45,101 nucleotides of DNA from Tubiluchus corallicola (taxonomy: Eukaryota > Animalia > Priapulida). Where the stretch lies: the NCBI GenBank assembly GCA_030141605.1, contig JAQGDQ010001352.1, positions 1-45,101 of the forward strand, given 5' to 3'. The translations under genes were made by a program, and so were the position numbers. Under the pieces are notes generated by a model. The model was not told the origin of the DNA, did not search any database, and worked only from the letters and a program-made list of their open reading frames with translations. Shown here one piece after another: positions 2,421 to 35,400 of the stretch. Each line of letters starts with the position of its first letter. Within the stretch, counting starts at the first letter, position 1.

Positions 2421-2442
2421 ACTATAGTGGTCGGCGTGGTTC

Positions 2443-5202: not shown

Positions 5203-5400
5203 AATTTACATCCTGGAGTTAGGACAAATTTATATTTTCATTTGTGAGAAATTGCATCCTGAAGACAAGACAAATTTATATTTTCATTTGCAAGAAATTG
5301 CATCCTGAAGATAGGACAAATTTATATTTTCAGTTGCAAGAAATTGCATCCTGGAGATAGGACAAATTTATATTTTCATTTGCAAGAAATTGCATCCTGG
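5203..5400. repeat. 46-bp minisatellite, ~4.3 copies
   Basis: TTGCATCCT recurs at 5252, 5298, 5344 and 5390 within the unit GAAATTGCATCCTGAAGATAGGACAAATTTATATTTTCATTTGCAA. Confidence 0.9.
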
Positions 5401-9230: not shown

Positions 9231-10044
9231 TCTCTTATATTAATATTCTTGGTATATTTATTTATTTATATATATATAAGATTCGAGGTTACAGCTCCGA
9301 CGAGGGCACCATTTGCGGCGATCTATATATCAAAAGAAATGTCTCGATCTAGTGTCGTGCCATTGATGGTTTATTTTTCGAATCGGGCCCACCGGGAGGA
9401 ACAGCGGACGAAAAACCTCAAAAAATGGCCATTTTTCGGCCGTTTTTTGCAAAAAATTGCAAAAAGTTATACGGCTGAGATGTAGAGAACGAGAATGGCC
9501 CGAGGGGGGTACTGGGTATGCATAAATAGTCCGCTCAGCGGTGGGTGTAGTAGGCATATTTAGAATTCCCGAAAGGGCCACGGCGCCCCGCAACGGGCGT
9601 TTTCCCGGACCCAACTCGCGATTTTTTCGAAATTTTGACCAAACAGCCTGCGGGAAAGACGTCCTAGCGGCGCCCGGTGGGACTTTCGGTAGGAGATATA
9701 TAGCTCTTTGCAAAGAGGAAGGACAGGGCTGCACGATGATGTGGGCTATATGTTAGGGCAGGTCCACCGAGAGGAGTATTAACGAGTTAATTAGATGTTC
9801 TATTTTCGACAATTTTCGCCTTAGAAAACTGCTGACGCAAAGGCATTGTGCTGACGTCATCCATTGTACTCTGTCTATAATCTTATAGCTTTAATTCAGT
9901 AAAAGCTGCTGCTTTGCGTTAGTTAAACAAACAGTAGGCATGATGTTACGAGCTTTGCGTTATACATGAGGACTTGGTAGGACGTTCGCGTATTATTGAT
10001 TACACGTGTATTTATACGCAAATCTTTCGCGGGGCCTTTGCTAG
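9231..10044 (+). mobile_element. Non-autonomous Helitron, copy 2 (814 bp)
   Basis: Begins TCTCTTATATTAAT immediately after the CTAG of copy 1; colinear with copy 1; ends GCGGGGCCTTTGCTAG. Confidence 0.8.
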
Positions 10045-10045
10045 T

Positions 10046-10663
10046 TCTCTTATATTAATATTCTTGGTATATATATATATATATATATATAAATATAAGA
10101 TTCGAGGCTACAGCTTCGACGACGGCACCATTTGCGGCGATCTATACATCAAACGAAAGGTCTCGATCTAGTGTCGTGCCATTGATGGTTTATTTTTCGA
10201 ATTGGGCCCACCAGGAGGAACGGGGGGCGAAAAACCTCCAAAAATTGCCCTTTTTCCGCCGTTTTTTGCAAAAATTATACCTGCTATTTCTGAAGAACGG
10301 GAACGGGCCGAGGGTGGTACTGGGTATGGATAGATGGCCCGTTCAGCGGTGGGTGTAGTAGGCATATTTAGAATTCTCGAGAAGGCCAGGGCGCCCCGCA
10401 ACGGGCGTTTTCCTGGACCCAACTCGCGATTTTTTCGAAATTTCGGCCAAACAGATTGCGGAAAAAACGTTCTAGCGCTTAGAAAACTGCTGACGCAAAG
10501 CCATTGTTGTGACGTCATCCGTTATTGCTTATAACTTTAATTCAGTAAAAGCTGCAGCTGCTGGCTTTGCATTAGATAAACAAACAAATACTAGGTAGTC
10601 ATGTTCGCGCATTATTGATTATTAGTCTATTTATACGCAATTTTTTTGTGGGGCCTTTGCTAG
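10046..10663 (+). mobile_element. Non-autonomous Helitron, copy 3 (internally deleted, 618 bp)
   Basis: Same termini; lacks the segment between AACGTTCTAGCG and CTTAGAAAACTGC that is present in copies 1 and 2. Confidence 0.8.
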
Positions 10664-10710
10664 TGGTATATATTAATTCTACTGGTATGGGCTTAATATA
10701 TTTATATATA

Positions 10711-13050: not shown

Positions 13051-14129
13051 ACCTGTTGGACAATACCTGTTCTAGACAGTTGAGTTGATACTTTTCACTC
13101 GTACAGACGTTCATTGTTGGTCTGGCCAGTAGGCATGTTCCAGCATACCTGTAGTTAACGTATTTGTCTGGAAAGGCTGGTACACGATCTGTGATGTAAC
13201 TTCTTTATTATGGAGAGCTGAGCTAAGTTTAGTTTTGGCCAAAAGGTCAGTGTTCCTGTTGTATAGCCTGTCTTTCTCAGTCTCGTTGCTGTTACATGGT
13301 TTGAAGAGCTGGTCAAGCCACAGAAGTGTGATGTTATTCCATTCCAGTCAGCTGTTGGTACTCTTGTGTTGTAGACTACAAGAGGGTTGCTGGAAGATGT
13401 TGATTAGCTGTCGTCATCTGCATTATAGCTCATGGAGGATTGTCATGTTGCCGGCGTCAGCGTTGTCATTGTGGGAGGATCGTCAAGTTGTGCACAACAT
13501 CGTCATGAACATTCAGATAAGTTATGCGCATTCATTTTCCTATCCTCATTTTTCCTTGGGGGTTTTCACAGCAAGCCACTAATAGTAATTTTGAGCTCTT
13601 ACTGTTGACTTGTTGTTGCACTCTTCTTTTGTAATAATTATAGCTTTAAAATTTATGTTTCATCTTGTTTTGTTTTCAACTAAACAGCCTTAAAAACAGC
13701 AGACGAACCCGTGAAAATACATGTAGTATATATTCCTGATCACTATATAAAAATTAGAAATGCAATAGCCCTCAAAACGTTACAGTTTCTTTGTTTTTCC
13801 GTAAGTTTATCTGCTTAAGTAGTTCAAGCTATGGTCTGTAGCTCTCCCGGGTTATTGTTTCGCCATCGTAAGTGCTGGACAAAGTCACTTGCAGACAATA
13901 TTTCAATTATTCATGGTCGCAAAGACAAGAAAATACAAGTCCAAGAAGCCAAATGGAAAGAATTGCATCGTGTTCCATTATACGTACATGTCATCTAACT
14001 AACTTTCTCTTACTACAGCCTACTGCTACCAGGTTTCAGAAACAATGGTTTCGTGTGACGAAGAAAACCAGAATAAACCAAGTCAGGATGAATCAGCTCC
14101 TTTGCTTTTTACCTTTCCGATAATGATTC

Positions 14130-14630
14130 CGATAGAAAAGGAAGCAATCTGGGTTCCAAACATGCCGACAGTTTGGCATGGGACCCATTGAACGTGCCAT
14201 CTTTAGATGGGAAACCGGAAGTGGAAAAGGAAGGACTTTCGGTAATGGAGAAAGTAGTAAGTGTAAGAGACGACATCACTGAAGGGCAAGTAGAAGATAC
14301 TACCACCACTCATAACTCCAGATGAAGCACACTCTGGCACTACAAAATGTATGAGGAATGACAGTGACATCAAACAAGTAGAAGTAAATGAAAAGTCCAG
14401 GCACACAGAAAGTGAAGCGACATCCGGTGTCAAACAGTCAGACGCAAGTTCTAAGCCAGGGTCAGATAACGATGACAACGTACCTACCAATTAGAAAAAA
14501 TTGTAAAAAATTCAGCACTATCAGCAGTGCAAGAGCACAAACAGGCTGCAGGCTGGAGCAGCACCTTGTGGCATTAGTTGCAAATAAATAAGATTAGCGC
14601 CATGGTTAACGAGTATCCGCATTGCAACAA
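14130..14630 (+). mobile_element. Second, more decayed copy of the Gypsy acidic C-terminal tail and 3' UTR
   Basis: ADSLAWDPLNVPSL and TPDEAHSGTTKCMRNDS match ENLAWDPFDAPFL and LPEEAHSGTTKRTRSDS of ORF 477-1145. Downstream AACGAGTATCCGCATTG resembles the reverse complement of 438-455. Confidence 0.75.
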
Positions 14631-15315
14631 AAAAGGAGTACCGAAACAAGGTTAATAAAAATAAGAAATGTAAGAAATGTAACCTGTATACATAATGTGG
14701 TTAAGTGTAACACCAGTAAGTCTTGGCGAGTCAAAAACTTTCTCGTGTTTTTTTGCAAAAAATTAATGGTTTTCTAATGCGTTTTTAGCACAAGAACAGT
14801 TTTCCTGTTTTAACTCGCAGTGATTAAACTTTTGCTAGAACCTATAATCAAGACACCAAGATACAAATTTACCAGTGACCTTGCTGAAATGTTTTACAGA
14901 TGGGTTATTTAATTTCGCCAGCATTAGGATAAACATTAGCCCACCTTTCACATATTTATAATTAACTTTGTACATAACATATCACTAAGTTAACTGCATT
15001 GATAAAAGCACATCTATGAACAATGCCATTTTGAATTTCAATACGGCGTATTCATCTTTCTTTAATGAAAGAAGCAGCCACCCATAACTTGTATGCTTTT
15101 ACAATGCCTAATAGTGCTTGACTTTAGTCACTGAACCATGACCACTCTGCTGTTCCTAAGCTTAGCGCTATATTTTACTAAGTCTAAAGGCAATGGTCAA
15201 TACTTTCTTGTTTTTTTAATTTACTGCGCAGCAATATTCATTCACCTGTTTATAGTAATAGAAAATATCAGTTGTTTATAAGTGTTGTGCGCGTAAGAAG
15301 CGAACAAGTAACTTA

Positions 15316-16419
15316 ATGTTGGAAAATGTGCACAAGTGTCGTTGCCTCAAATTTCGCAAAAAAATGCAGTACACATTGAAAATAACATTCAAGGCATTTA
15401 TTATCATTTTGTCTTGTCCAATAATTATTTTAACGTTTGTTAGCGAATCTGTTAATCCGAACGAAAACATTAAAATTGTTTACAATACTGTTTCCCACAT
15501 ACAAGTTGATCCATATTGTCTAAATGTGATAGATTTTCACTTGACCTTAACAGTTATAGCTTTCAACAGGAGTGATTCAGTTAATAGATTATTACAGTCT
15601 CTTGAAGCAGCTGAGTATATGGGCGATTCGGTTTCATTAGAAATCTGGATAGATGGCCCGGAGATGGCTGCCCAAAAAACTGTAAAAGTGGTGCAAGATT
15701 TTAATTGGAGCCATGGACAGAAACGATTACACATGAGAATCAGACATGTAGGACCTTACACACAGTGGTATGATACATGGACGCCTGATCTTCAGGAAAC
15801 TGGAAAATATGGTCTTATTCTAGAAGACGATTGTGAGGTTTCTCCTCATTATTACAAATGGCTTAAGTCAGCAATTTATGTGTATAAAGACTTGAAAGAT
15901 CTAGGTAGCATTACTTTGTATCGTGGTAGATTTGCAGTAAAACCAGGAGTAGACAGAGATGTTCTCTGCCCAACGTGTACAGATAGTGTATTTCTTTATC
16001 CAAAGTTCAGTACGTGGGCTTGTTCACCAGTGCCAAGAGTGTGGGCGGAGTTTAGGCAATGGTACTCAACAGTAAAAAACGATGAAAACTTTATTCCTCT
16101 GATTCCTGGTGATGAGAATCTCGTGATAAATGGATGGATACGTCACTTTCATCCAATGAAGAAAATGAATTCGGCGTACTTTCATCATTACTGTGGCAAG
16201 CATCAGCTTTATACTATATATCCTAATTTGCCAAATAAACTAAGTTTTGTTTGTAATCACAGAGAACTTGGACTTCATTATGTCAAAGCGTATAGACGTT
16301 TGGGAATTTGTATATATGACTTGGTTAAAACGTGGGACAATAGTTATACCAATTTTCCTATAAATCCAAAACGAATTCATTGGGATGGTTACCCGGAAGG
16401 CAGGTTTCTCATGGTTTAA
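15316..16419 (+). CDS. Intronless type II membrane GT-A-fold glycosyltransferase-like protein (367 aa)
   Basis: N-terminal hydrophobic anchor (AFIIILSCPIIILTFV), then VIAFNRSDSVNRLLQSL, LEIWIDG, FNWSHGQK, QWYDTW and LILEDDCEVSPHYYKWL (EDD = DxD-like). These motifs resemble a GT2-like family common in plants, algae and fungi. Uninterrupted ORF; AATAAA at ~16618. Start could instead be ATG 15364. Confidence 0.8.
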   Translation: MLENVHKCRCLKFRKKMQYTLKITFKAFIIILSCPIIILTFVSESVNPNENIKIVYNTVSHIQVDPYCLNVIDFHLTLTVIAFNRSDSVNRLLQSLEAAEYMGDSVSLEIWIDGPEMAAQKTVKVVQDFNWSHGQKRLHMRIRHVGPYTQWYDTWTPDLQETGKYGLILEDDCEVSPHYYKWLKSAIYVYKDLKDLGSITLYRGRFAVKPGVDRDVLCPTCTDSVFLYPKFSTWACSPVPRVWAEFRQWYSTVKNDENFIPLIPGDENLVINGWIRHFHPMKKMNSAYFHHYCGKHQLYTIYPNLPNKLSFVCNHRELGLHYVKAYRRLGICIYDLVKTWDNSYTNFPINPKRIHWDGYPEGRFLMV

Positions 16420-17589
16420 CGTAAAAAAATTGATTGAAATATTGATTGAAAAAGCTAGTGACTAAATGTTTAAATGACAAAATGCTTTAACATTTTTTCA
16501 AATGACACTTGACTCGACACAGTTGTGCAAACTAGTTGGAAAAAATTATAATTGAATTTTAATTTATTTATTTTAATGTAGCATTTTGATTGAGTGTATG
16601 ATTCATATTTTGTTATGAATAAATTTTGGAATATGGATTTCAGTGTATATTAATTGGGTTTATCAGAACCAGATTAAGATGATAAACTCGCTCCTCCCTG
16701 ATTTTGTTATGGAAATTCATATAATTTCATTAAGGGACTCATCCAGCTTGTAGCTTGAATTTAATGAGTTGGAAAAGTGAAACCGACAAACTGAGATGTC
16801 GCAAGTTAAGTTCAAGAGTTTAGATTTAATAAGCAGAATTGTCGCAATGTAGTGAAACTGACAGGTGCAGAATTCAAAGAGACGCTGTTTACTAGCAGCG
16901 TGCACGCCAATTAGAAAACAAGAGAATAAGGTCAGTAGTAACCGTTTGTCACGTGCCGAGGAAGAAATCAAAAGCGGCAAATCCAGTAGCAGCAATTATT
17001 GATCATACAGTTAGAAATCGAAAGTATTATCCGCTGTCCAGGAGGTAAGATGGCCCGAGATGGTGCAATACTCAATATTTGCTTTATAAGCTTGAAGAAA
17101 GTTCAAGCCACACACACAACGAGGGAGAGTCACACACACAACGAAGGAGAGTCACAGAGACGACGTGGAGGAGAGACTGACAGTGGTTGCCGATACATTG
17201 TTGTTGTGTCCGAGGCATATTCTGCAAGACGTCAGAAATATCGTTAGTCCAGTGTTGGGAATAAATTTATAAATCGATAATTTGGTAATAAATCTCATGC
17301 CTCCCTGATTTTATAAAATAAATTTATTGATCGATATAAGAACTCATCGGCCCAGGAAGAGTAGTAGGCCCGAGGAGGCCGCAGGAAAACTATTAGGCTC
17401 CCAACGGGTCGTCTCGCCCGTCAGGAGCCAACCTTTTGTAACGGAGATAAGCAGCGTTGTAAATAATAAAATTGTGAATAAAGATAGTGTATGCAATAAT
17501 TGTAGTAATATGACTAGCAATAAAAAGGGCCGTGATGCGCATAGAGGGTGCCAATGTAATTTAAGGGTGTCAGGGATAATTGGGATGCA

Positions 17590-18759
17590 GTGAGTGCGTT
17601 CCGAACTCACAGCTCAACAGGCTGGCAGGAACCATTGGTTACCCAGCCGACCTGTTTGGTTGAATTAAATGTTAGGCCTACACGTATGCTGATCGACACG
17701 GGTGCAGCGACCTCATGTGTGTCGTTAGCATTATATAAATGTCTAGGAATGGGACCTTGTAAAGCAAGTAGCGTGACTTTGAAGGATGCCTCAGGCACAG
17801 TCATGCCAGTAATTGGGTCAAGAGATATTGAAACGAAGTTTAGTGACAGCAAAGTTAGAATTAAGTATCAAATCGTCCGAGTGCAGCAGAATGCCATTTT
17901 AGGCATTGATGCGCTTCAAGCAATGAATGCCTCGGTAGATTGTGGTAGGAAATTGATGATTATTGGTAAAAAGGCCCACCTTCTTGCTTTAGATCGAGTG
18001 AGTGAGAAAGAACTCGATGTTCTCCTCGCCGATGAGAACACTCTAATCCCCAGTAACAGTGAGGTAGTGATGCGTACTCGGATTAAGAGGGATAGGCCAA
18101 ATGGACAACTCCTGTGTGTGGAGATGGCGGAACATGCGCACGTGTTTAAGAATCGCCCGGACGTTGGGTTCGAGGCCGGTTTAGTGGAAGTAGAAGAAGG
18201 GCGTAGGAGCTCAGTACTCATACGAAATAATTCATGTAGGCCCATAAGAATTAGGAAGAATTGCGTGATTGGCACCGCGCAAGAAACTAGCGTATTGAAC
18301 GTACATGCAATAGCGCTAGCAAGTAAGTGGAACAATAAAAGCGGCTCGAGAAAAAATTATGGCGTAACTAGTCAACGAAAGTTTCGAGATGATAACCTTC
18401 ACTGCATGCCCGCACGGAACAAGGGGATTCTGCAGGTTCCCCAGGTCCCTAATGACCGACGATTAGCGGTGAATGCGATGACTCGCGGCAAGATGCATAA
18501 TGATAGAGTGCGCAGTAGGGCAGCAGGTAATTATCCACAAGAATGTGGACTTAAAGTTCAGTACGATGATAGGGGCGGAATGTTTATGGAACTCCGGGAT
18601 ATAGAAGGCCCCTCGCCAAGCGTTTCAGGCCGTTTCAGAGCTGAACTTGTATCAGAACCCGAAATCTCACAAGAAGGAGAAGATCTTAGTAGGAGGGGCC
18701 AGGAGGGGTCAACTCCTGTGCTTACCTCTTTGCCAGGGGCAACGTTAAGTCAAGGGCAA
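17590..18759 (+). mobile_element. Internally deleted Gypsy element: aspartic protease joined to linker and acidic tail, truncated by the BEL element
   Basis: MLIDTGAATSCVS and AILGIDAL (retropepsin); post-protease IPSNSEVV...IRKNCVIG region; terminal VSEPEISQEG...GATLSQG matches ORF 477-1145. No RT, RNaseH or integrase in between. Confidence 0.8.
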
Positions 18760-19181
18760 TGTTAAGCACATACACGTTTCCCTACCTATTAAATGTGGTC
18801 TTGCCCCTTTAACTGTCATCAGTCATGTGACCAGGTAGTTGGCCAGGTAGACATTACCTGACATGCAATTCAATTGATATGATGTGAATGTTGTAGTTGA
18901 TTTCTTATTGTTTTTTCTTGCAAGTTATAAGTGCCAAAACTCAGGGAGACCACATGTAAGTGTCTAATTATGTTTATTGAACTACTTTATGCTATTAGAA
19001 CAATTTAGCTGTCATTTTTTTGTACAATTATAGACGATAATCACGTTAGCTAATTTCGTAATGTACCTTTATCAAACTTATCTTTTTCATTGAAAACTTA
19101 TTGCTGTAATTTATTATTACAGATAAAACGACAATTGCTGCATGTTAAACATTTGATGTTCTGGAGTTTAAATGTAGTACA
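18760..19181 (+). repeat. 5' LTR (422 bp)
   Basis: TGTTAAGCACA...TGTAGTACA; identical to 26080-26501 except at 2 positions (18795 G/T, 18895 A/T). Confidence 0.97.
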
Positions 19182-19435
19182 GTTTTATATGCCTCGCCGG
19201 GAGTTTCATGTTGCCATTAAGCAGTGACCTTGATTCAGGTGCAGGAAGTTTGACATGCTTACCTGATAGCTTTGCTCATTATGGGCTTCTACAGCGTAGC
19301 TGGTTTCTACAGGTAAAGCGGCATGAACTCTGTGAACTTGGACGCGTCAGCTAATGGGCAATAGATGGCGCTTCGGTCTTGAAAAGTGATCCTAATTTTT
19401 TTGCAAAATTGACACTAAGAGCAATTTAATTTCAA

Positions 19436-20506
19436 TTGAAAATGGCATCAGCGTTATTCACTAAAAGCGAACTGGAAAATAAAGTAGTTGAGGAGCTGAG
19501 GCAAATTCTTCGTAGTATGTCTTTGTCGGTTTCTGGCAACAAGGCAAATTTAGTACAACGAATTTTGAAGCAACAGGAAACCGGTCCTTGTATACCAGGC
19601 GCTCCAGATGAATCAGCTGATTTATCGCCACCCTCAATAGCAACTGACCAACCCATGCAAGAGAAACGTAGGAGCGAAAAGTCCACCAAATCCTCGAGTG
19701 TGACGTCATCGAAGAAGAGTGCCAAGCTAAGAAACCAAGAGCTCATGATTAAAGAACAAGAACTCAAACTCCAAGCGATGAGAATACGACATGAACGCAT
19801 GCAGAATGAGTGTAGTTCTGAGGATGAACGTGATGAAGACTGCTTTGGTTCTGCAGCTGATGTTGAGACCAGGTTAGTGGACCATGGAACATCAGACTCA
19901 AAGGTCAAAGCATGGCTAAGGTCAAGGTCAACATACACGGATCCGACAGTTAAACATACACAAACTACACGCGAAAGCGATGAGAATTACTTGTCTGAGG
20001 CCTTTGTTACTTTAGCAACTACTGATAAGTATGCGTTGGGAGCACTTGTTCTTGCTTCTAGTTTGCGTCGCACAGGAACAATGAGATGCTTAGTCATCAT
20101 GGTAACAGAGGGTATTTCTTGTGATATTATGACACTTTTGAGAAATGCATTTGATTTGGTTGAACATGTCAGTATTATTGATAGTCATGAGTTTAAAAGG
20201 TTACAATTGTTAGGAAGACCAGAACTTAATGTGAGTTTTACTAAGCTACATTGTTGGAGGTTGACACAATTTAGCAAATGTGTATTTGTAGATTCTGATA
20301 CAATTGTATTAGATAATGTTGATGACATGTTTAGATTTAAAGAGCTTTCAGCTGCCCCTGATGTAGGCTGGCCAGATTGCTTTAACTCTGGTGTGTTTGT
20401 TTACAAACCAAGTATTGATATGTATAATAAGTTAATGTTGTATGCTAAATCAGAATCCTGTACTTTTGATGGTGGGGACCAAGGATTATTGAATCAGTTT
20501 CTTTAA
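19436..20506 (+). CDS. BEL polyprotein part 1: SAP motif, low-complexity/coiled-coil linker, N-terminal part of glycogenin domain
   Basis: SAP-like LENKVVEELRQILRSMSLSVSGNKANLVQRIL; glycogenin AFVTLATTDKYALGALVL, RPELNVSFTKLHCW, KCVFVDSD, ELSAAPDVGWPDCFNSGVFV, FDGGDQGLLN. Probable ATG at 19442. Ends at a 1-nt frameshift (~20500). Confidence 0.9.
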   Translation: MKMASALFTKSELENKVVEELRQILRSMSLSVSGNKANLVQRILKQQETGPCIPGAPDESADLSPPSIATDQPMQEKRRSEKSTKSSSVTSSKKSAKLRNQELMIKEQELKLQAMRIRHERMQNECSSEDERDEDCFGSAADVETRLVDHGTSDSKVKAWLRSRSTYTDPTVKHTQTTRESDENYLSEAFVTLATTDKYALGALVLASSLRRTGTMRCLVIMVTEGISCDIMTLLRNAFDLVEHVSIIDSHEFKRLQLLGRPELNVSFTKLHCWRLTQFSKCVFVDSDTIVLDNVDDMFRFKELSAAPDVGWPDCFNSGVFVYKPSIDMYNKLMLYAKSESCTFDGGDQGLLNQFL

Positions 20507-20771
20507 AGACTGGTCAACTAGTTATGAAAAACATTTGCCATTCACTTATAATGCTGTCATTCAGGGTCGGTACGGATATTTACCAGCTTTAATGCAATTT
20601 GGGAAAAATGTAAAAATTGCTCATTTTTTAGGTCAACATAAACCATGGCACTATATTGAACACGATTCGCATACAGCTCACGTGGCGCCACCTGTTGGCA
20701 AAAAAGGTTATGAATTCGACATAATGAACAAGTGGATACAGATCTTTGATACTGACGTTAGGCCACTGCTG
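19994..20771 (+). other. Captured glycogenin (GT8) catalytic domain, intronless
   Basis: Colinear with human glycogenin-1 from AFVTL to WWNIFTTNVLPLL (here WIQIFDTDVRPLL) once one extra T at 20498-20500 is removed (NQFFKDWSTSYEKHLPFTYN). Confidence 0.95.
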
Positions 20772-23700
20772 GAAAACAAAAATATTCGTTTGCCTATGCA
20801 GCATCCAAGTTCTGGAAATCAGTGTCTGAATGCATCAGCGTCTGCTTTTATTCCACTAGCGCATGGCAGTAATATACCGCGCGAGAATAGTTATGCCTTT
20901 AATTCTACTCAACCTACCATTTGTACTGATAATTTAAGCGACATGCCTAATCAATGCCATCCACAGAGCAATGACATGGCTATGATTATGAACATCATGC
21001 TTGAAGCACAACGTCAACATACCAACATGTACAAAGCAATGCAACTTCCAATAGCGGAGTTGGACAAATTTGATGGTAACGTTCTAAACTTTTGGCAATT
21101 CATGCGACGTTTTGAAGCCAACGTCGAGAGCTACACACAAGATGAGGCTGCAAGGTTTCAGAGATTAATGCAATTTTGCACTGGAAAAGCCAAAAAAGTT
21201 GTGGAAAGTTGTAGCTACATGGACCCCAGTCGAGCATACAAGCATGCAAAGCAGTTACTCATCGACAGGTTCGGCTCTTCGTTTATGGTTACTCAGGCTT
21301 GGATGTCAAAAATAATCGAGTTTGACCAAATCAAGGCCAATGACAACGAGAAGCTGCGAGAATTTGCTGACTTGCTTTTAAGCTGTGTCGAGACGTTGAA
21401 AGCAATGAATAATCTCAGCGAAATTAATACACAGACAAGTCTCGTTCAGATTGTTAAAAAACTGCCATACAAATTCCATGATAAATGGAAAGACGTGGTG
21501 TCCAGGATAGCAAAACATGAAATCAGAAACCCATGTATTTATGATTTGCTAACATTCATTCAGGAAAATGCTGAAAAAATGAACCACCCTGTGTATGGTA
21601 GCCTCGGCGATTGGGAAAAACCTAAACGAAGCATCTCTGCCAAAAATTATGCCACCTCTGCTAAAGCACCTCAAGTTCAAGCAAACAATGGCAAGGCGAA
21701 AACAAATCAAGAAAAGCCGCAAACCAAAAGCGCCCAATTTTGCAAGAAAGTTTGCATATTTTGCAGCTCAAAGGAGCATTCTTCTCTTGGACAGTGTGAA
21801 GCTTTTGCAGCTATGGACACCCCAGCTAAGTTGATGTTCGTGCGTAAGGAATGCCTCTGCTTTAATTGTTTAGCGAAAGGAAAACATAGAGCAGCTAGAT
21901 GTTTCAAACCGTCTTGTAGTGTTAATGAATGCAACAAGAAGCATTCAGCTTTATTGCACGATGCAGTGGGGAGGCTGAGCAGTTCTTCTTCAGATGTTAA
22001 TAGGCTTGCCAGGGATGAGCAGCAAAGAAAAGACGAGACTGAAGCTACAAGCTGTGCAAATAGGGGCAGTTCTAAAGGAAAGAGGATAGCATTGCCTATG
22101 GTCAAAGTTCAAGTACATGTACATGGAAGAAAGCCAGTTGAAGCCATGGCTCTGTTAGATCCTGGATCTACAAACACGTTTTGTTCCAGGAAGCTGTTTG
22201 ACAGCATAGGTGCTGAAGGAAAAGAGGATGTTCTTACCCTAACCACAATCGAGAAACGCCAAAGTAAAGCAGACACTTTAGTTACAAGTTTCGTTGTTAC
22301 GGACAGCATTGGTGAAAACAGAATCTTGTTGCCTCATGTTTTTGTTCGACAGTCACTGATGCTAGATACAGAATGCTTGGCATCAGTTGCAGATGTTCAA
22401 AAATGGCCGCACTTGAAAGAGATAGCGTCATCTTTAGTTGAGTATCACGGACAAGATGAAGACCTAAGCTTACTAATCGGTCTTGACGTACCTGATGCCT
22501 TGGCCCCTCTGCAAGTTAGACGTGGTCCTGTAAACGCTCCTTATGCTGTTAAGACGAAGCTGGGATGGACGTTGAATGGGCCTATAGCGGGCAGCAAAGT
22601 ACACAACGTGTCAGTAAATAATTATGTTCTGGTCAAAGAGTCTTCTGAAGCCAAAACAGATGTCTTGCAGCAGCAAGTCGAGAGATTTTGGAAAATAGAT
22701 TCTGTTTTGGATGATGAGCAGTATTCTAGAGAAGAGATGATGGTCATCGATATTTGGGAAAGCTCAATAACCAGAAGAGACGGCCACTATGAGTTAGAAA
22801 TACCATTTAAAGGCAAACATAATGTTATTCCTGATAGCTTTCAGATGGCAGCAAAACGGCTCAATGGACTCAGAAGAAAATTCACCAAGAATCCCATTCT
22901 TCATCAAAAGTACACTGACGGAATCAACGATTTGCTAAACAAGGGTCATGCAGAGCTAGTGGAAGAACAATCAGCAAGTACTCCTACACATCTGACTTGG
23001 TATCTTCCTTACTTCCCAGTCTTTAACGAAAATAAACCAGATAAAACCCGTATTGTTTTTGATTGCGGTGCAGAGTGCGAAGGTATCTCACTGAACAAAT
23101 TGGCTTTGCAAGGTCCTGACCTTACGAATAATTTGGTTGGTGTCCTCTTGCGATTTAGGCAGTATCCAGTTGCCGTGCTAGCAGATATACGTGAGATGTA
23201 TCACCAAGTGTTTGTTTCGCCCAAGCATAGAGATATGCTGAGGTTCATTTGGTGGCCTGAGGGACGAATTGACCAGCCTCTTCAGATACTTAGAATGACC
23301 GTGCACCTTTTTGGAGGGGCTTGGTCCCCCAGTGCGGCGTCATTTGCCTTGAAACGCACTGCATTGGACTACCAATACAGCTTTGATAAAGAAACGGTAG
23401 CAACTGTGCTTTACAATTTTTATGTGGATGACTGCCTAAAGTCATTCGAAAATGTAGAGCAAGCATTGAAGCTAATTACTCAGCTAAAGCTGCTTTTGCA
23501 GAAGGGTGGATTTTGTTTGACGAAATGGATGTCAAATGATAAACGTGTTCTCGACACTATCCCAATTGAAGATAGGGGAAAAGGTGTTAAAGATCTAAAC
23601 TTGTCACATGACACACTGCCGAATGAGCGTGCCTTGGGGATAAGTTGGCAGATGGAGGCTGATACGCTAGGCGTCCATGTAAAACAAAATGAGCATCCCA

Positions 23701-23936
23701 ATACAAAGCGTGGATTGCTTAGTTCTCTTTCCAGTATCTATGATCCCCTTGGAATGTGTGGCCCATTTGTTCTGCAAGGAAAGAAACTGTTTCAAGAAGA
23801 ATGTCGTTTACCAGACAAAACGTGGGATAGCAAGTTGGACGGCGCCATTGAGAAGAAATGGAAACAATGGAAAGACGAAAGCACACTGTTAACAGATTTC
23901 AAGATTGAGAGGTCATTCATGAGTTTGGTAAGGTGA
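20499..23936 (+). CDS. BEL polyprotein part 2: rest of glycogenin domain, DUF1759 Gag, three Cys/His knuckles, protease, reverse transcriptase
   Basis: KHLPFTYN..RYGYLPA..AHFLGQHKPW; LDKFDGNVLNFWQF; CIFC..H..C, CFNCL..H..C, CSVNECNKKHSALLH; LLDPGSTNTF; ADIREMYHQV, HLFGGAWSP, FYVDDCL. Confidence 0.95.
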   Translation, partial: FFKDWSTSYEKHLPFTYNAVIQGRYGYLPALMQFGKNVKIAHFLGQHKPWHYIEHDSHTAHVAPPVGKKGYEFDIMNKWIQIFDTDVRPLLENKNIRLPMQHPSSGNQCLNASASAFIPLAHGSNIPRENSYAFNSTQPTICTDNLSDMPNQCHPQSNDMAMIMNIMLEAQRQHTNMYKAMQLPIAELDKFDGNVLNFWQFMRRFEANVESYTQDEAARFQRLMQFCTGKAKKVVESCSYMDPSRAYKHAKQLLIDRFGSSFMVTQAWMSKIIEFDQIKANDNEKLREFADLLLSCVETLKAMNNLSEINTQTSLVQIVKKLPYKFHDKWKDVVSRIAKHEIRNPCIYDLLTFIQENAEKMNHPVYGSLGDWEKPKRSISAKNYATSAKAPQVQANNGKAKTNQEKPQTKSAQFCKKVCIFCSSKEHSSLGQCEAFAAMDTPAKLMFVRKECLCFNCLAKGKHRAARCFKPSCSVNECNKKHSALLHDAVGRLSSSSSDVNRLARDEQQRKDETEATSCANRGSSKGKRIALPMVKVQVHVHGRKPVEAMALLDPGSTNTFCSRKLFDSIGAEGKEDVLTLTTIEKRQSKADTLVTSFVVTDSIGENRILLPHVFVRQSLMLDTECLASVADVQKWPHLKEIASSLVEYHGQDEDLSLLIGLDVPDALAPLQVRRGPVNAPYAVKTKLGWTLNGPIAGSKVHNVSVNNYVLVKESSEAKTDVLQQQVERFWKIDSVLDDEQYSREEMMVIDIWESSITRRDGHYELEIPFKGKHNVIPDSFQMAAKRLNGLRRKFTKNPILHQKYTDGINDLLNKGHAELVEEQSASTPTHLTWYLPYFPVFNENKPDKTRIVFDCGAECEGISLNKLALQGPDLTNNLVGVLLRFRQYPVAVLADIREMYHQVFVSPKHRDMLRFIWWPEGRIDQPLQILRMTVHLFGGAWSPSAASFALKRTALDYQYSFDKETVATVLYNFYVDDCLKSFENVEQALKLITQLKLLLQKGGFCLTKWMSNDKRVLDTIPIEDRGKGVKDLNLSHDTLPNERALGISWQMEADTLGVHVKQNEHPNTKRGLLSSLSSIYDPLGMCGPFVLQGKKLFQEECRLPDKTWDSKLDGAIEKKWKQWKDESTLLTDFKIERSFMSLVR

Positions 23937-26029
23937 TATCCACAGAGCTTCATTATTTTTGTGACGCTTCTGAAAGTGCTTATGGTGTGGTAGTGTTCAT
24001 TCGTCAGCAGAATGAGCTCAACGTTATCCACACTGCCTTTGTCATTGCGAAATCAAGGCTAACTCCCATGAAAGGACTGACTATTCCTCGCCTGGAGTTA
24101 TGTGCAGCAGCTCTTGCAGCTAAACTTGAAAAGGTGCTACGGAAAGAGCTTACCATCCACATTGACAGGTCAATATTTTGGACGGATAGTCTAATTATCC
24201 TGCACTACATACGAAATACTGTCAAGCGCTTTCATACCTTCGTGCAGAACAGGGTCACAAGCATTCTAGAGGTCTCATCACCAGAGCAATGGAGATATGT
24301 CCCTTCTGAGGAAAATGCAGCTGACGACCTATCTCGAGGATTAAATGCTTATGCACTGTTAGAGTCGACACGCTGGAAATTCGGACCTAGATTCCTGATG
24401 CTTCCAGAAGATGATTGGCCTCGAATTGATATAACTACGCAGAAGGATTTATTACAAGGTGACAAAGAAGTGAAGCACTCTCCAGTTGTTAATACCATAA
24501 CAGCGACGTCAATGGATGACACACAGCAACAGCGTAATATCATAAATGATTTGATGGATCGTTATTCTTCATTCTACAAGTTGAAGAAAAGTGTTGCATG
24601 GTTTCTTCGGTTCAAAACAGTGCTAAAGAACAAAGTTGCCAAAAAGACTTCGAGTTTTCCAAACAAACTGACTGTTGCAGAACTCGACTATGCCGAAGAA
24701 GAAATAATCAAGTATGTGCAGAAAGAGAGTTTGCCGAAAGAATATAAAGACTTAAGCACTAGTCAGAACGTTATTAAGTCTAGTTGTCTTGTGAAACTTG
24801 ATCCATTCCTATGTGAAAAGCAACTTATTCGTGTAGGTGGCCGAATAAGGCGTGCTGATGTCAACTATAATGCGAGGCATCCAATTGTTTTACCAAAAGG
24901 ACATAAATTATCACGTTTAGTCATCCAAGATTTCCACACCACGCATGGACATGTCGGCAAACAGCATGTAATGTCTTTGATCCGCCAGAAGTTTTGGATT
25001 ATTGGAATGCGTGGCATGGTACGCAAGCTTTTAGCTGAGTGCAGACAATGTAGACTGAATAGGGCAATGCCACTGCACCAGAAGATGGCTGACTTGCCTG
25101 TAGACAGATTGCAAAGCTCTGGAGTGTTTGCTACTGTGGGTACTGATTGCTTTGGTCCAATTATGGTAAAACGTGGTCGCTCAGAAGTAAAACGTTACGG
25201 CATCCTTTTCACATGTATGGCTAGCAGAAGCATCCATCTTGAAGTTTTGTTCACGATGACAACTGATTCGTTCATAAAAGCACTAGATAGGTTTTGCTCC
25301 AGAAGAGGTAAACCTGACAAACTAATGTCTGATTGTGGAAGTAATTTTCTGGGAGCAGACAAAGAGCTCCAAAAGTCTGTAGAATCTTGGAACACCAATG
25401 TTGTCACGGAAAACTTACTTCAGAAACATATTGATTGGGACTTTTGTCCTCCTCGGGCATCTCATATGGGAGGAGCTTGGGAAGCACTAATTAAAAGTGT
25501 TAAAAAAGTTCTGCACTCAGTGGCTCAAGAGCAGGTACTTGATGATGAGGGTTTGAGCACCTTATTCTGTATTGTCGAGAACATAGTCAATACAAGACCT
25601 CTGACCACAGCGTCTGATGATCCGAATGATTATGATTCTTTAACACCTAACCACTTCCTTCTGATGGGCAGAAGTGCTCCTCCAATACTTCCACTGGGTC
25701 AGTTTTCTGCAGGAGATGTTTATAGGAAAAAGTGGCGACAGATACAATATCTTTCTAATGTATTTTGGAATCGCTGGAAATTAGAGTATTTGCCGATGCT
25801 CCAACAACGTTCAAAATGGCACAAAGAAAAACAGAATCTCAAGGAGGATGACGTTGTTCTAATTATGGATACAACTCCAAGAAATTGTTGGCTGCTTGGA
25901 CGTGTTGTAAAAACCCACGTCAGTAAGGATGGTCTGGTGAGGAGTGTCACCTTGAAAACCAAAGAGGGGTTTCTTAAACGTCCTATACACAAGTTGTGTT
26001 TCATTGAAGGTCAGATGATGAACGTGTGA
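23921..26029 (+). CDS. BEL polyprotein part 3: RNase H and integrase
   Basis: EFGKVISTELHYFCDASESAYG, IPRLELCAA, FWTDS, NAADDLSRG; HTTHGH...CRQC, GTDCFGP, SDCGSNF, GGAWEALI, NTRPLT, RPIHKLC. Joined to part 2 by a -1 frame change at ~23920. Confidence 0.95.
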   Translation, partial: EFGKVISTELHYFCDASESAYGVVVFIRQQNELNVIHTAFVIAKSRLTPMKGLTIPRLELCAAALAAKLEKVLRKELTIHIDRSIFWTDSLIILHYIRNTVKRFHTFVQNRVTSILEVSSPEQWRYVPSEENAADDLSRGLNAYALLESTRWKFGPRFLMLPEDDWPRIDITTQKDLLQGDKEVKHSPVVNTITATSMDDTQQQRNIINDLMDRYSSFYKLKKSVAWFLRFKTVLKNKVAKKTSSFPNKLTVAELDYAEEEIIKYVQKESLPKEYKDLSTSQNVIKSSCLVKLDPFLCEKQLIRVGGRIRRADVNYNARHPIVLPKGHKLSRLVIQDFHTTHGHVGKQHVMSLIRQKFWIIGMRGMVRKLLAECRQCRLNRAMPLHQKMADLPVDRLQSSGVFATVGTDCFGPIMVKRGRSEVKRYGILFTCMASRSIHLEVLFTMTTDSFIKALDRFCSRRGKPDKLMSDCGSNFLGADKELQKSVESWNTNVVTENLLQKHIDWDFCPPRASHMGGAWEALIKSVKKVLHSVAQEQVLDDEGLSTLFCIVENIVNTRPLTTASDDPNDYDSLTPNHFLLMGRSAPPILPLGQFSAGDVYRKKWRQIQYLSNVFWNRWKLEYLPMLQQRSKWHKEKQNLKEDDVVLIMDTTPRNCWLLGRVVKTHVSKDGLVRSVTLKTKEGFLKRPIHKLCFIEGQMMNV

Positions 26030-26070
26030 TTGCTTTTTTGTTAGGTGATAAATGCTCGTGGAGACATTTA

Positions 26071-26079
26071 TGGGGGCGG
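26071..26079 (+). promoter_or_regulatory. Polypurine tract-like sequence
   Basis: TGGGGGCGG immediately 5' of the 3' LTR. Confidence 0.6.
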
Positions 26080-26501
26080 TGTTAAGCACATACACGTTTC
26101 CCTACCTATTAAATTTGGTCTTGCCCCTTTAACTGTCATCAGTCATGTGACCAGGTAGTTGGCCAGGTAGACATTACCTGACATGCAATTCAATTGATAT
26201 GATGTGAATGTTGTTGTTGATTTCTTATTGTTTTTTCTTGCAAGTTATAAGTGCCAAAACTCAGGGAGACCACATGTAAGTGTCTAATTATGTTTATTGA
26301 ACTACTTTATGCTATTAGAACAATTTAGCTGTCATTTTTTTGTACAATTATAGACGATAATCACGTTAGCTAATTTCGTAATGTACCTTTATCAAACTTA
26401 TCTTTTTCATTGAAAACTTATTGCTGTAATTTATTATTACAGATAAAACGACAATTGCTGCATGTTAAACATTTGATGTTCTGGAGTTTAAATGTAGTAC
26501 A
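26080..26501 (+). repeat. 3' LTR (422 bp)
   Basis: Direct repeat of 18760-19181. Confidence 0.97.
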
Positions 26502-29910: not shown

Positions 29911-30028
29911 CTGCATGTAAAATTTAAGGCTGAATTAAAAAAATATAATTGAATAGACCCACAACTTGTTGCATTTTTAACCCACTTATACTACTACGAA
30001 TTTTATAATTTCTTTCTTAGTATCTTAT

Positions 30029-30828
30029 ACTGTTTTTCCTGCGCATGAGCAGTAGACGTTTAGAGCTCAAATCTTCAGAAATGTTCAAATGTAAACAACT
30101 GTTTTTCCTGCGCATGAGCAGTAGACGTCTTTGAGCTCAAATCTTCAAAAACGTTCAAATGTAAACAACTGTTTTTCCTGCGCATGAGCAGTAGACGTCT
30201 TTGAGCTCAAATCTTCAAAAACGTTCAAATGTAAACAACTGTTTTTCCTGCGCATGAGCAGTAGACGTTTAGAGCTCAAATCTTTAAAAGCGTTCAAATG
30301 TAACCAACTGTTTTTCCTGCGCATGAGCAGTAGACGTTTAGAGCTGAAATCTTCAAAAACGTTCAAATGTAACCAACTGTTTTTCCTGCGCATGAGCAGT
30401 AGACGTTAGAGCTCAAATCTTCAAAAGCGTTCAAATGTAAACAACTGTTTTTCCTGCGCATGAGCAGTAGACGTTAGAGCTCAAATCTTTAAAAGCGTTC
30501 AAATGTAACCAACTGTTTTTCCTGCGCATGAGCAGTAGACGTTTAGAGCTGAAATCTTCAAAAACGTTCAAATGTAAACAACTGTTTTTCCTGCGCATGA
30601 GCAGTAGACGTTAGAGCTCAAATCTTTAAAAGCGGTCAAATGTAAACAACTGTTTTTCCTGCGCATGAGCAGTAGACGTTTAGAGCTCAAATCTTTAAAA
30701 GCGTTCAAATGTAGCCAACTGTTTTTCCTGCGCATGAGCAGTAGACGTTTAGAGCTCAAATCTTCATAAACGTTCAAATGTAAATAACTGTTTTTCCTGC
30801 GCATGAGCAGTAGACGTTCAGAGTTCAA
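30029..30828. repeat. 68-70-bp tandem repeat, ~12 copies
   Basis: Unit ACTGTTTTTCCTGCGCATGAGCAGTAGACGTTTAGAGCTCAAATCTTCAAAAACGTTCAAATGTAAACA; CTGCGCATGAGCAG counted 12 times. Confidence 0.97.
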
Positions 30829-32438
30829 GAGTTTATGATTTTGCTTGGCGCATCTGAATCGCAAATTTTTATTGCTACTGTTGTAGCATTTCGGCCAGTT
30901 TTTGTCCTTTATAATTAGTTCGGCATTTCTGTATATTTGACCTTGTTTGCTTTGACCTTTCTCACCACACTTCAACTTCGTTTGTACAGGGTGTCGCAAA
31001 ATAAACGGCGTAGTAGAAATATTCTAACAAGCTGAAATGCGCTGATCAAATAACACGGAAGCGTGTTTGTCCACGTGTGCGAAATAAAAATGATTCTATT
31101 TCTATTGATACACTGTCTTTGGTTAAAATCGAGAGATAAATATTTAGCACAGTAACTACTCAACGTTTCACTTAGGAAAAACTAGTTATAAATCTACGGA
31201 CTGACGATTTTTTATTAAAATTTTTACCTCCACCCTGTGAAGCAAATATGACTTTATCAGCTGGCTTCATACTGAGTCTGGTAAATGGATTTTCAGTGTC
31301 ATAAAGAAGCCAATCTTCATGCTGTAGAAAAACAGCACAGTTAAAAATGTTGCTGTTCAAATATAAATTACGCGTTTATGATTGAACTCTCAAATGGCTG
31401 TTTAAGATAAGTGCTGATTTTTGTAAGGAAATTAAGTAGCCCTTGATGTGTTTTTTACTTTTCGTTATCAGTGACACGTCTGCCAAAAAAACGAAAATTT
31501 GCCAGCAAGATTAATGATCTCCGCAAACGAAGTTGAGCAACATAAAGCCCGGTTAATAAATGAATAGTGACTACTGAATGATGAATGAATAACGACTCGT
31601 TGTACACTTACCTATAAATGTGTGCCTTTTGAGGAATCATGGGTACGCATTCTGACTAGCCACAAGTTTGTTCATTAAAGTATCCACTGACTTTGAATAC
31701 TGGCAGACAGCTTGCTAAATGCAGGACTGTAGATTCACATCAGAGCTGCTATAATATTATGAGAAAATTAACTTTTAATGCACGTAATTAAAAATTGTCA
31801 TTTTTTCAAATCCAAACTTTGTCTTTCTTTCAAATTTTAAATTACCAAGATAGTAATTAAGTACACACTTTTAAATGTAAATTTTATACTACTTTTACTG
31901 CTACTGCCACCACCAGAAGTACTATGATATTATATTGGTGTACATTTTTTTCAGATTAAGCATTCCATTCTAAGATTGCTAACTACTAGTGTTTATTTGT
32001 TTATCAAGCTTTCATCATCAAGCCTTCATATTCGTTATTACTTATTTTGACCCTGTATATTAACATTAGAGCTGCTATAAAATTATAAGAAAGTTAACGT
32101 TTATTGCATGTAATTAAAAGTTGTTATGTTTTTCAGATACGTTATTTAACAGCGACATTAAATTGGTAAGTTTGACTATTTTCTTGTTGAATTTTTTAAT
32201 TTTAAATGACCCTACTGTCCGTGTGTCTGTTCGTCCACTGTCCACAATAGGTTTTTCTCTTGTATTTCTGTAACAAATGATCGGATCGTCATGAAACTCG
32301 TGCGATTCGAACTCTAGATCCTGTGCAGTTAGAATCTTGACATTGTTAAAATGGTTTTAGCTGACCGAGCCGTAAATAACACTTCATTTTTTTGCTTATT
32401 TTAGATTGAAGAGTCTCGATTTTCTTGAAATTTTTGCA

Positions 32439-35400
32439 ATGCCTAAGCGGTAAGTAAAGAAAATTTGCTTTTTAGCCAGAAAACCTTTCCATCTACTTTT
32501 TTATTTTCTGCATATGTACCGTTGTACAAACATACAGAAATATTTTTCTGCTGTTAACAATCTCGTGTGGTGTGAGATTATTCTTTATTTATATAACTTT
32601 TTACAGGATCATCTTGCAATTTATTTTCGAAACATTTTAAGTTAACAAGCCAGCCCCACGTCTGTTGTGTTTGCAATCATTAAAATTTCTACATTCTCAA
32701 TAACCTGAAGAACTTTGCTGCCAGTAAACAGAACATCATTTTTCTTGTAACAAAACTTTAAACAATACACTATAGCTTGCGTTATTATAGTGATAAAAAA
32801 GTCAAATCAAATTTACATACCCTTAGTTTACACAACAACTTAATAACTTATTTATTTTATCATGGACTTTATATATATATATTCTCTTATAATATTACTA
32901 TCTTGTATTAACCACTGTTGTTTACTTTTTCTGTTAAACTAGTAAAATGAAATGACGTTTTTCTTCTTTTTTCAGATGCCATTTTTTCGCCGAGTGTGGG
33001 GGGCGAGGCAACGTGGATCCCCGGTACGCCACGCACAGGTCCACGTCTGCCTGTGCGTGGCGCTACGAAGCTCAGAGGGAGCGAGAGATCGTCGCAGGGG
33101 TGGTGGCTCGGCCACCCCTGGAAGAGGTCCAGAGTAAACCGAAGCCAGTGTAAGTAGACACGATTATAATTACAAATTAGCTTTTTCAGTTAGAACCGTT
33201 CATTTCGCCACCTCGTGGCTATAGTTTTTGTTTTTGTTTACTTTACACAAAACATTACCGTTTGGTCTTTGTGAAGCAAACAATGCATAATAAATTAACA
33301 GCTAGCTTATTACAATCATTTCATAAAGTTTTGATATCGTCTTAATCGACACGAACTGGAACGTTGTCTCTTGACATTTCATTCCATCCGAGATATTACT
33401 GATTTTTCGATAGTTAATTATTGTACCAAAAGGAAAAATGATTATAGCAAATGACGTCAACAATCATTTAAAGTTACGTTGCTGTTTTTTAGTATCGTAC
33501 TATAATGATAATGATAAGAATGAGTGGTTATGAAGTTGTTTTTGTAATTCAAACGTCTCTGTTTCAAATCCAGGCTGAGTTCAAGCTATTTACTTTCTTG
33601 TCTTCGTGAGTTTAATGTGTATCAACATTCATAATAATTGTGGTTTTCTACCGTCATAGCAAATCTTTTACTGTGTTGGTTGCAGTAGTTCATTTAGCTG
33701 CTGAAAGAGACGGTTTGCTAAATTCTGCTGTTTCTTAATTGAGCACAATATTTACTCGAGTAGTTGTGAACCGTAACTGAACAACTGACCTACCAACTTT
33801 GAGCAATTTTCGTCCAAGAACTCATGGGTAACTTGAATATGACTTAATATATTTTTGGTTAAAACGTTTTAGACATCAATAATCTGTGGTTATATAAATA
33901 ATAATAATTATAATTGTCCTTAATAATGTTTAGGACACTAATAGTCCAATGATAACAGCTTATTTTCAAAGTAGTCTTGATAGAACCCGGTTGGCAGAAC
34001 GAGCGGTAATTAAATCTTTACTCTTACGTGTCAGGAATTGAACCCGCGACCTCCAGGATGGAAAACGAACACACGACAATTGAGCTAACCCCCGAAATTT
34101 TTGCTCTTGAGTAACGCATAGCAACAAAATATTTGCTGTTTCTTTTCAGTTAGATCTGCAAATTTGTGCTTTCAACACTAGAAAATTGATATTTCATTTA
34201 TTTTTCTTTCCATTTGGAGATGTCCAATATGTCAGCTTGTGTGTCAATGTTTATAATAAACCTACCAGAGTTGAACTTGTGCGTTAAGAGGATTGATCAG
34301 TTTTTCAAACACGTGCTTAACAAATTGCCAGCAAATAGGAGTCATTTAGTTCCAACAATTTCTCATGTAGTTTTATTAACTTCTTAAACATGCAGATTTT
34401 TCAGAGATTTTTTTTGAGAATAGTTTGATTCAATATCGTTTTTTGCTTTTGTAAAAGAGCTGTGGAAAAATTGGGATACGCAATCCCGATTTTACACCAG
34501 CAAATAGGAGTCAATTAGTTCCAACAAATTTCTCATGTTGTTTTATTAAATTTGTTTATCCATAAAATTATTAAACCGGAAGTGCATCTTCCCATCATAT
34601 AATTTTTGAGTCTTTTTTGTTGTTTTGTTTTTGAAGTTTGGCAAAATGACACTACGTTTTGTAGAAAAATGAAAATGATTTTTGTCTCTTTTAGGCGAAG
34701 GTGCCCAAATTATGATTCGTGTGGTGGGCAGGGCAATGTCATTGAGGGTCGGGGCAGGCACTATGTGATGTCGAATTGTCCATTCGAGCTGGAGGCGGTG
34801 CCTGTCCCGGCCCTGCGTGTGACCAGGTAAGCAGATTTTTTATAATTTAAACCTAACAAAAACGAAATCTTAATTTTATTGTATTTTTATTTCACGTACA
34901 ATTGTCAGAAGTGCAAAGTTAGAACTGACTTTCAACCCTTAAATTTCAACTTTTTATTATTATGTATGAAAGCACAAAGCTGGTTAAACTTTGTCTCCAA
35001 ACATGTTAGAGGCCTAATGCAGGGCTAATATGCAAAAACATGCTGTTAGACATCTCTAAGAAATGACTAAATTTAGCGGAAGAAACTTTAGGTTTTCTAA
35101 TAATGACTGGCATTATAGGCTAGCAAAGGCATTGCAACTTGTCAGTTTAACAGTACAAATGCTAGCTCCCAATGTTCAGTAATGCACAAACGTCTTCTGC
35201 TTTTTATGCAGAAACAGTGAATGGACGTATTAACGTATTAACTGATACTTTACGTAGGTTTTATATGACTTAATAACACGCCAAATGTCAGCATAATAAT
35301 CAGCCCACGTGACGACGCAAATAGCCACCAAGGTAGTTTTCATTTTGCTATGAGTTATACAGCATCTCCCCGATGACACCCCACCCCCGATTTTATTGAA

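Follow-up and report, generated by a model that had tools for sequence, protein, structure and literature searches.

Organization of the element

The 45,101-nucleotide stretch analysed here (positions 1 to 45,101 of contig JAQGDQ010001352.1, assembly GCA_030141605.1, from the priapulid Tubiluchus corallicola; hereafter the window) contains on its forward strand a BEL/Pao retrotransposon of 7,742 bp (7.74 kb; 18760-26501), in whose Gag the catalytic domain of glycogenin is embedded. The element is flanked by two direct long terminal repeats (LTRs) of 422 bp with TG...CA ends (5' LTR, 18760-19181; 3' LTR, 26080-26501), which differ at 2 of 422 positions (18795 and 18895 in the 5' LTR). A sequence-only reading of this DNA had drawn attention to the near-identical LTRs and to a domain of about 260 amino acids, colinear with animal glycogenin, between an N-terminal linker and the DUF1759/zinc-knuckle region of Gag. 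All of this stands, and to it we add an N-terminal SAP domain, two frame breaks, a missing glycogenin tail and the absence of a target-site duplication, on which that reading was silent. Based on the evidence presented below, the Gag-glycogenin fusion is almost certainly real and selected.

The coding part of the element lies in three successive open frames (19430-20506, 20493-23936 and 23909-26029), separated from the 5' LTR by a leader (19182-19441). The first frame, with its ATG at 19442, runs without a stop from the SAP domain at the N-terminus of Gag (19487-19570; PF02037, E 1.7e-9) through a polar low-complexity linker (19571-19990; 73% polar or charged residues) into Glyco_transf_8 (E 1.2e-6), that is, into an intronless glycogenin catalytic (GT8) domain identified by Pfam and by alignments to glycogenin-1 (19991-20777). 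The second frame holds the rest of the GT8 domain, a linker that resembles the N-terminus of relative P0391 (20778-21020; E 1e-8), the capsid (21021-21644, with DUF1759 at 21069-21500, E 3.7e-9), the triple Cys-His box of the nucleocapsid (21753-21959) and, by motifs and Pfam, the protease, the reverse transcriptase and the start of Peptidase_A17 (22152-23936). The third frame brings the remainder of Peptidase_A17, RNase H, the zinc-binding domain of the integrase (Integrase_H2C2), the integrase core and DUF5641 (23909-26029, stop codon at 26027-26029), and is followed by a purine-rich tract (26068-26079) just upstream of the 3' LTR. Both outer junctions of the glycogenin domain are therefore in frame, as had been proposed: the SAP frame runs into GT8, and the frame of the GT8 end runs into DUF1759. 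Of the expected Pfam domains, Glyco_transf_8, DUF1759 and Peptidase_A17 were recovered. In the family Gag-Pol, the domain order is SAP, linker, glycogenin catalytic domain, linker, capsid, three Cys-His boxes, protease, reverse transcriptase, RNase H and integrase. The window copy itself is broken in frame near 20500, inside the glycogenin domain, and near 23920, and because of these breaks it is incapable of making the full fusion protein.

Membership of BEL/Pao is supported by several lines of evidence. According to PMC554778, the hallmarks of the group are the triple Cys-His box, a protease with LLDXG and LIG, YVDD in the reverse transcriptase, DAS in RNase H and D(49)E in the integrase. 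We found all of them (LLDPG and LIG; YVDD at 23421; DAS; D-D(49)-E), in the order protease, reverse transcriptase, RNase H, integrase, together with the family-typical Pfam domains DUF1759, Peptidase_A17 and DUF5641. The third Cys-His box fits the published motif, and the first two are one residue longer each than the motifs given in that paper; the D-P-G variant of the protease motif occurs in 23 of the 74 motif matches among 150 relatives. A structural model of the capsid, covering the DUF1759 region, has a pLDDT of 93.5, and its best structural matches are the capsids of PNMA2, Copia, dArc1, Ty1 and Ty3 (Foldseek E 2.6e-3; Z 8.0-8.6). In a wide structural search, 13 of the top 14 rows were, by title, retroelement capsids or their derivatives.

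Two features commonly looked for at the ends of such elements were absent. No canonical TGG-type primer-binding site was seen directly behind the 5' LTR (19182-19205), and there is no target-site duplication, the left flank being GGGCAA and the right flank CATACA; such a duplication would attest to a clean insertion and is no criterion for BEL/Pao. The left end of the element interrupts a gypsy-like protease frame and the right end adjoins a (CATA)n microsatellite; the flanks of the window copy are altered or recombined.

The glycogenin domain

The domain is closest to glycogenins. The two pieces into which the first frame break divides it are colinear with solved glycogenin-1 (chain 7q0b_E), matching residues 3-170 (E 6e-61) and 169-263 (E 3e-15), and together represent the folded catalytic part of the enzyme. 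With human residue numbers counted by hand from glycogenin-1 alignments, the DxD motif lies at 20291-20299, the acceptor tyrosine (Tyr195) at 20571-20573 and His212 at 20622-20624. Among the 89 alignment columns that are conserved in at least 95% of 201 host glycogenin domains, 82 are kept. The kept residues include R77, K86, D102, D104, N133, D160, D163, Q164, Y195, H212 and K218, of which R77, K86, N133, D160, D163, Q164, H212 and K218 are presumably functional in glycogenin. The HFxGxxKPW motif is kept as well, and DxD has the form D-S-D, the serine being found in 15 of the 201 hosts. Both D102 and Y195 are needed for self-glucosylation (PMC5203857, PMC13671788). Judging by these residues, the glycogenin domain of the family is probably catalytically active.

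What the element does not carry is the tail. The glycogen-synthase-binding tail comprises the last ~33 residues of glycogenin (PMC8203840), and its motif is present in 208 of 239 host proteins; a tail profile run over the six frames of the window returned nothing under E 1.7. In other words, the element carries a glycogenin catalytic domain and not a complete glycogenin.

Identity of the domain to host glycogenins reaches at most 56% (52-56% to the animal type), compared with a host-host median of 61%. A tree against host glycogenins had been suggested as a check. In a quick tree search, which used 106 of 202 rows, the domain lay on a long branch (1.65 vs a median of 0.16), and this search yielded neither a placement of the domain nor a donor lineage. 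Since the intron is absent and the branch is long, we infer that the domain probably stems from an ancient capture, with a spliced glycogenin mRNA as its source. A shortage of CpG over the first half of the domain (observed/expected 0.2) was considered as a signature of the host and dropped, as 500-base windows give 0.46, within the range of 0.44-0.84.

Family copies in public sequencing runs

To the element we aligned contigs of the public sequencing runs X1, X2, X4 (study P2) and X5 (study P3, same species label); such contigs drop rare variants. Half or more of the sampled words were present in four of the six listed runs, from two studies, and the glycogenin domain was found in four runs of three studies. 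Both junctions are bridged in X4, the 5' junction by a contig that begins at the LTR end, crosses SAP and reaches glycogenin (19154-20267, 17 other letters), the 3' junction by a contig that joins glycogenin to the capsid (20477-21178, 18 other letters). The 3' junction is also bridged by an X1 contig (19965-20839), whose left part is too short to count at the 5' junction; X1 may itself be the sample from which the window derives. The sequence-only reading had named an assembly chimera as one way in which it could be wrong. Because contigs of a second study (P2) bridge both junctions, the fusion is not an assembly chimera. As for X5, a record from the end of glycogenin (20682-20787) continues into letters that match the linker of the window at 21 of 30 positions, gaplessly and by eye, which makes the 3' fusion common to the X5 lineage and the window.

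The family contigs are also informative about the reading frame and the copy number. The first frame break (near 20500) is absent from the contigs of all four runs and the second (near 23920) from those of X1, X2 and X4, so both look private to the window copy. A continuous gag-pol frame in the family is plausible on these contigs, with no single record covering the element. Unlike flanks precede the LTR start (26079-26080) in 14 contigs of X1, 14 of X2 and 8 of X4, and in X1 the glycogenin contig has a depth of 1053 vs 161 for the contig with the left flank of the window insertion (6.5x, depth not being true copy number). The element family is multi-copy, with many insertion sites.

Several other observations were made in these runs. 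In X4, the summed depth over 20102-20635 is about 30,000-35,000, compared with 60-800 over the rest of the element, and adapter ends occur at 20301 and 20401; this peak likely reflects an enrichment or amplicon library catching the conserved glycogenin core. Two X5 records (depth 21.8 and about 11.5) overlap the domain over short tracts only, at 20348-20400 and 20679-20714, and then diverge. Beyond these tracts they read like glycogenin coding sequence of a more distant kind, which could belong to the host gene, paralogues or a sister element; if they are the host gene or paralogues, the capture is old. Finally, a pol contig of X5 leaves the pol sequence at 23917, and its last letters, just 31, are similar to the glycogenin region around 20670. 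It is probably an internally rearranged copy, and hints that glycogenin and pol are on one element in the X5 lineage.

Selection on the domain

A diverged relative is present in X5. Over a 591-base jointless glycogenin contig, 42 positions (7.1%) differ, compared with 11.0-12.6% in four pol pieces, 12.2% in the capsid and 9.6% in the leader and SAP; glycogenin is less diverged than pol (Fisher p 5.6e-4). Within 19600-20900, X5 differs at 57 places, of which the 40 listed comprise 31 synonymous and 9 non-synonymous changes. For the 123 codons with a presumably complete listing (21 synonymous, 7 non-synonymous), dN/dS is 0.07-0.12 at a dS of 0.23-0.36 (p 6e-10 to 5e-7), a value from a single pairwise comparison of collapsed contigs. 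Even in the worst case, with all 9 unlisted differences of the contig counted as non-synonymous, dN/dS is 0.14-0.20 (p at most 1e-6). Three more differences, common to several runs, are all silent, and the codon of the acceptor tyrosine shows a silent change only, at 20573. The glycogenin domain is under purifying selection. A second outcome that the sequence-only reading had regarded as fatal was that other copies would lack the domain and that dN/dS would be near 1; instead, other family copies carry it, and dN/dS does not exceed 0.20.

Relatives and the search for further fusions

To find out how unusual the fusion is, we looked both at Gag relatives and at glycogenins. Among the 150 closest listed Gag relatives, a SAP-like N-terminus is present in 3, and a profile of host glycogenin matched none. 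In the 43 of these with the longest N-termini, which were scanned, the N-terminal slot holds a double zinc ribbon in one case and an enzyme family in none. The earlier statement that BEL/Pao Gags carry at most a PHD finger at this position was accordingly too narrow. The idea of a general cargo slot in BEL/Pao Gag was considered too, and is unsupported given the lack of an enzyme there in all 43.

Searches from the side of glycogenin were likewise negative. No retroelement Pfam domain was found in 120 listed of 829 long glycogenin matches (628-2000 aa), none of 120 listed of 2908 matches of 196-627 aa covered the SAP part, and none of five candidates of 2009-5000 aa scored. With a query of the glycogenin end plus Gag, HMMER gave 7821 matches, and none of the 150 listed covered the first 89 residues. 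These protein-collection negatives are weak, as broken or fragmented element genes are seldom annotated. Nor, judging by the papers listed, was a Gag-glycogenin fusion described in the literature searched, in agreement with the sequence-only reading (most subscription journals, supplements, Repbase, Dfam and GyDB were outside the scope of this search). Element libraries published with papers such as PMC3118150 may include a relative that passed without comment.

Surroundings of the element

Upstream of the element, the 5' LTR truncates a gypsy-like aspartic-protease frame (17560-18759, forward strand); the last part of this frame is 82% similar to 936-1037 on the reverse strand, and 14030-14490 resembles the same gypsy-like element at the protein level. 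The remainder of the frame, which should lie behind the 3' LTR, is not there, in keeping with the absent target-site duplication. At 477-2480 (reverse strand) and 2443-3555 (forward strand) there are degenerate pol fragments of gypsy-like type, along with the integrase remnant of a second BEL/Pao element. An intronless frame of 385 codons at 15262-16419 (forward strand) has no Pfam match, and by Atlas features it groups with a cluster found most often in molluscs (0.98), as well as with GT13/GNT-I glycosyltransferases (0.93-0.96). It is probably a host single-exon glycosyltransferase, and its closeness to the glycogenin element looks like chance. Further downstream, long inverted arms (39777-40348 and 42431-43004; 74-97% complementary) around a 50-bp tandem array (41866-42364) make up an element of about 3.2 kb, of the foldback-like or non-autonomous DNA type. 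Other tandem arrays lie at 8457-10664 (about 800 bp), 5203-5432 (46 bp) and 29991-30884 (68-69 bp).

Discussion

The element is a member of BEL/Pao (Belpaoviridae). Like Sinbad, it has LTRs, the triple Cys-His box, LLDXG and LIG, YVDD, DAS, D(49)E and, in the family, probably one gag-pol frame (PMC554778), and it is 40-47% identical to BEL/Pao relatives, including those of a nemertean and a holothurian. Unlike these relatives, it has a host enzyme of 260 residues between SAP and capsid, which is absent from the 150 closest listed. The domain in turn resembles animal glycogenin (GYG1/GYG2; PDB 7q0b, 3t7m, 1ll2) in that the whole catalytic domain is colinear, up to 56% identical, and has DxD, Tyr195 and His212, but differs in being tailless, intronless, fused on both sides and on a long branch, with 7 of the 89 conserved positions changed. 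Capture of host enzymes by retroelements is not novel. Rotifer LTR elements have captured a GDSL esterase, a DEDDy exonuclease and a dUTPase, and CR1/L2/RTEX elements have an esterase in ORF1 (PMC5408684); an SF1 helicase has been captured by retroelements (PMC6338049), and AlkB is found in orchid Ty3/Gypsy (PMC9289625). As in these cases, a host or viral enzyme has been fixed in the frame of the element, and the position of the non-LTR ORF1 esterase is gag-like as well. However, the captured enzymes described in these sources have nucleic acid, nucleotide or lipid substrates, whereas the present cargo is a glycosyltransferase of glycogen metabolism; and whereas the rotifer ORF3s are reported to show no departure from neutrality (PMC5408684), the glycogenin domain is under strong purifying selection. 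The closest viral parallel is Mimivirus R707, a glycogenin-like glucosyltransferase proposed to glycosylate viral proteins (PMC9614988). R707 is encoded by a free-standing gene of a giant DNA virus, is 26% identical to glycogenin-1 and does not self-glucosylate, in contrast to the present domain, which is 52-56% identical to the animal type and lies inside Gag. In other words, host-enzyme capture by LTR elements is already known, and within the literature searched the glycogenin cargo is unprecedented.

What might such a domain do? We propose that it is active, that it glucosylates itself, and that from the outer face of the virus-like particle it ties the particle to the glycogen machinery of the host, a reading to which we give about an even chance. 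With Gag and Pol apparently in one frame, each Gag would be made with glycogenin N-terminal to the capsid; the suggestion of the sequence-only reading that each Gag would carry a transferase follows from the presumably single frame of family copies and from the active-site residues that are kept. The consequences suggested there, namely a glucan coat, association with glycogen particles or a use of glycogenin dimerisation for assembly, are plausible. The domain would sit on the outward-facing end of Gag because it is N-terminal to a PNMA2/Ty3-like capsid fold. PNMA2 is the best or second-best fold match of the element capsid, and in its particles the part of the protein that is N-terminal to the capsid domain forms spikes on the outer surface (bioRxiv 10.1101/2023.02.09.527862). 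An active domain would put 8-14 glucose units, a short alpha-1,4-glucan primer, on its own tyrosine in each subunit. Glycogenin dimerises, and host synthase could lengthen the primers, acting either in untethered form or by way of tailed host glycogenin paired with the domain, with branching enzyme brought in likewise. The outcome would be a particle decorated with, or moored to, glycogen, and the benefit may be that it is sheltered in, or stored with, glycogen-rich germ-line cytoplasm. In its most specific form, in which the retrotransposon has commandeered the initiation of glycogen, and Gag self-glucosylates and recruits the glycogen machinery, producing a glycogen-coated particle or cDNA complex that is hidden in and inherited with the glycogen stores of the egg under a self-made glycan camouflage, the proposal is tentative, and we lean somewhat against it.

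A number of observations weigh against this reading. The 7 of 89 conserved columns lost compare with at most 5 in any of the 201 hosts, and the lost positions include T83, now serine, and the second tryptophan of the C-terminal WW; T83M glycogenin is described as inactive. N12 is a threonine, as in just 5 of the 201 hosts, and the branch is long and unplaced. Mimivirus R707 has the tyrosine but fails to glucosylate itself (PMC9614988). Lacking the tail, the domain could recruit synthase only indirectly, and a complete coat of glycogen would depend on host glycogenin or on untethered synthase. The protease of the element may remove the domain, either prior to assembly or afterwards. The structural matches of the capsid are moderate, the Z scores being those of a helical protein, the window copy is itself broken inside the glycogenin domain, the 5' junction is bridged by no X5 contig, and dN/dS comes from one pair of sequences.

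Several alternatives were considered. The protease might free a SAP-glycogenin fragment, whose SAP part would bind naked element cDNA or chromatin and whose glycogenin part would seed glycogen there, which would ease entry of the cDNA into the nuclei re-forming in eggs and cleavage embryos. SAP, a DNA-binding module, is on the same N-terminal piece as glycogenin, glycogen is needed in Xenopus egg extracts for turning naked DNA into functional nuclei (PMC2119932), and the conservation evidence is the same as for the particle-bound enzyme. However, SAP predates the glycogenin capture, because SAP-like starts occur in 3 of 150 relatives without glycogenin, and the leader and SAP are less conserved in X5 than glycogenin (9.6% vs 7.1%); we regard this explanation as unlikely. 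The enzyme could instead act as an effector against the host, either by glucosylating other targets (Gag residues, or host factors of silencing or restriction) or by depleting or rerouting glycogen priming, the tail having been lost to uncouple it from glycogen synthesis. The missing tail, the long branch, on which residues close to the donor and acceptor sites have changed, and the existence of GT8 relatives with protein acceptors (Skp1 galactosyltransferase, 6mw5; Mimivirus R707) would all agree with this, but the self-acceptor tyrosine is kept, its codon being only silently changed in X5, and tail loss is also predicted by an in-frame internal insertion, so that we find an effector role unlikely.

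Quite unlikely, in our view, is a non-catalytic docking or dimerisation module, binding host glycogenin or glycogen particles or assisting Gag assembly, with the catalytic residues kept for fold and ligand binding. The loss of more conserved positions than in any host protein speaks for such a module, whereas all checked metal, sugar-donor and acceptor residues are intact across a long branch, and the sole change at T83 retains the hydroxyl, serine being presumably tolerated there. That glycogenin is better conserved than pol between lineages might even point to selection for the host, with the element-borne domain providing extra glycogen priming and the family heading to domestication. Near-identical LTRs, many insertion sites and a pol that is conserved and unbroken in family contigs, as well as the lack of a tail and the presence of other glycogenin-like sequences in the same run (X5), make this very improbable. 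A neutral one-off capture or an assembly chimera, for which the lack of a fused relative in protein collections might be cited, is largely refuted by junctions bridged in a second study, by the domain being found in four runs of three studies and by a dN/dS of at most 0.2, and is hardly credible.

The retroelement-fixed enzymes known so far from the sources cited act on nucleic acids, nucleotides or membranes. If the particle-bound enzyme is real, a selected carbohydrate-storage enzyme inside Gag would link transposition to glycogen metabolism, a link so far not looked for, and a cytoplasmic, non-enveloped retroelement particle would be able to glycosylate itself. The element would also offer a natural experiment, in which a glycogenin catalytic domain without the synthase-binding tail is arrayed on a shell. 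For the retroelement, glycogen granules would then be a shelter or a germ-line route.

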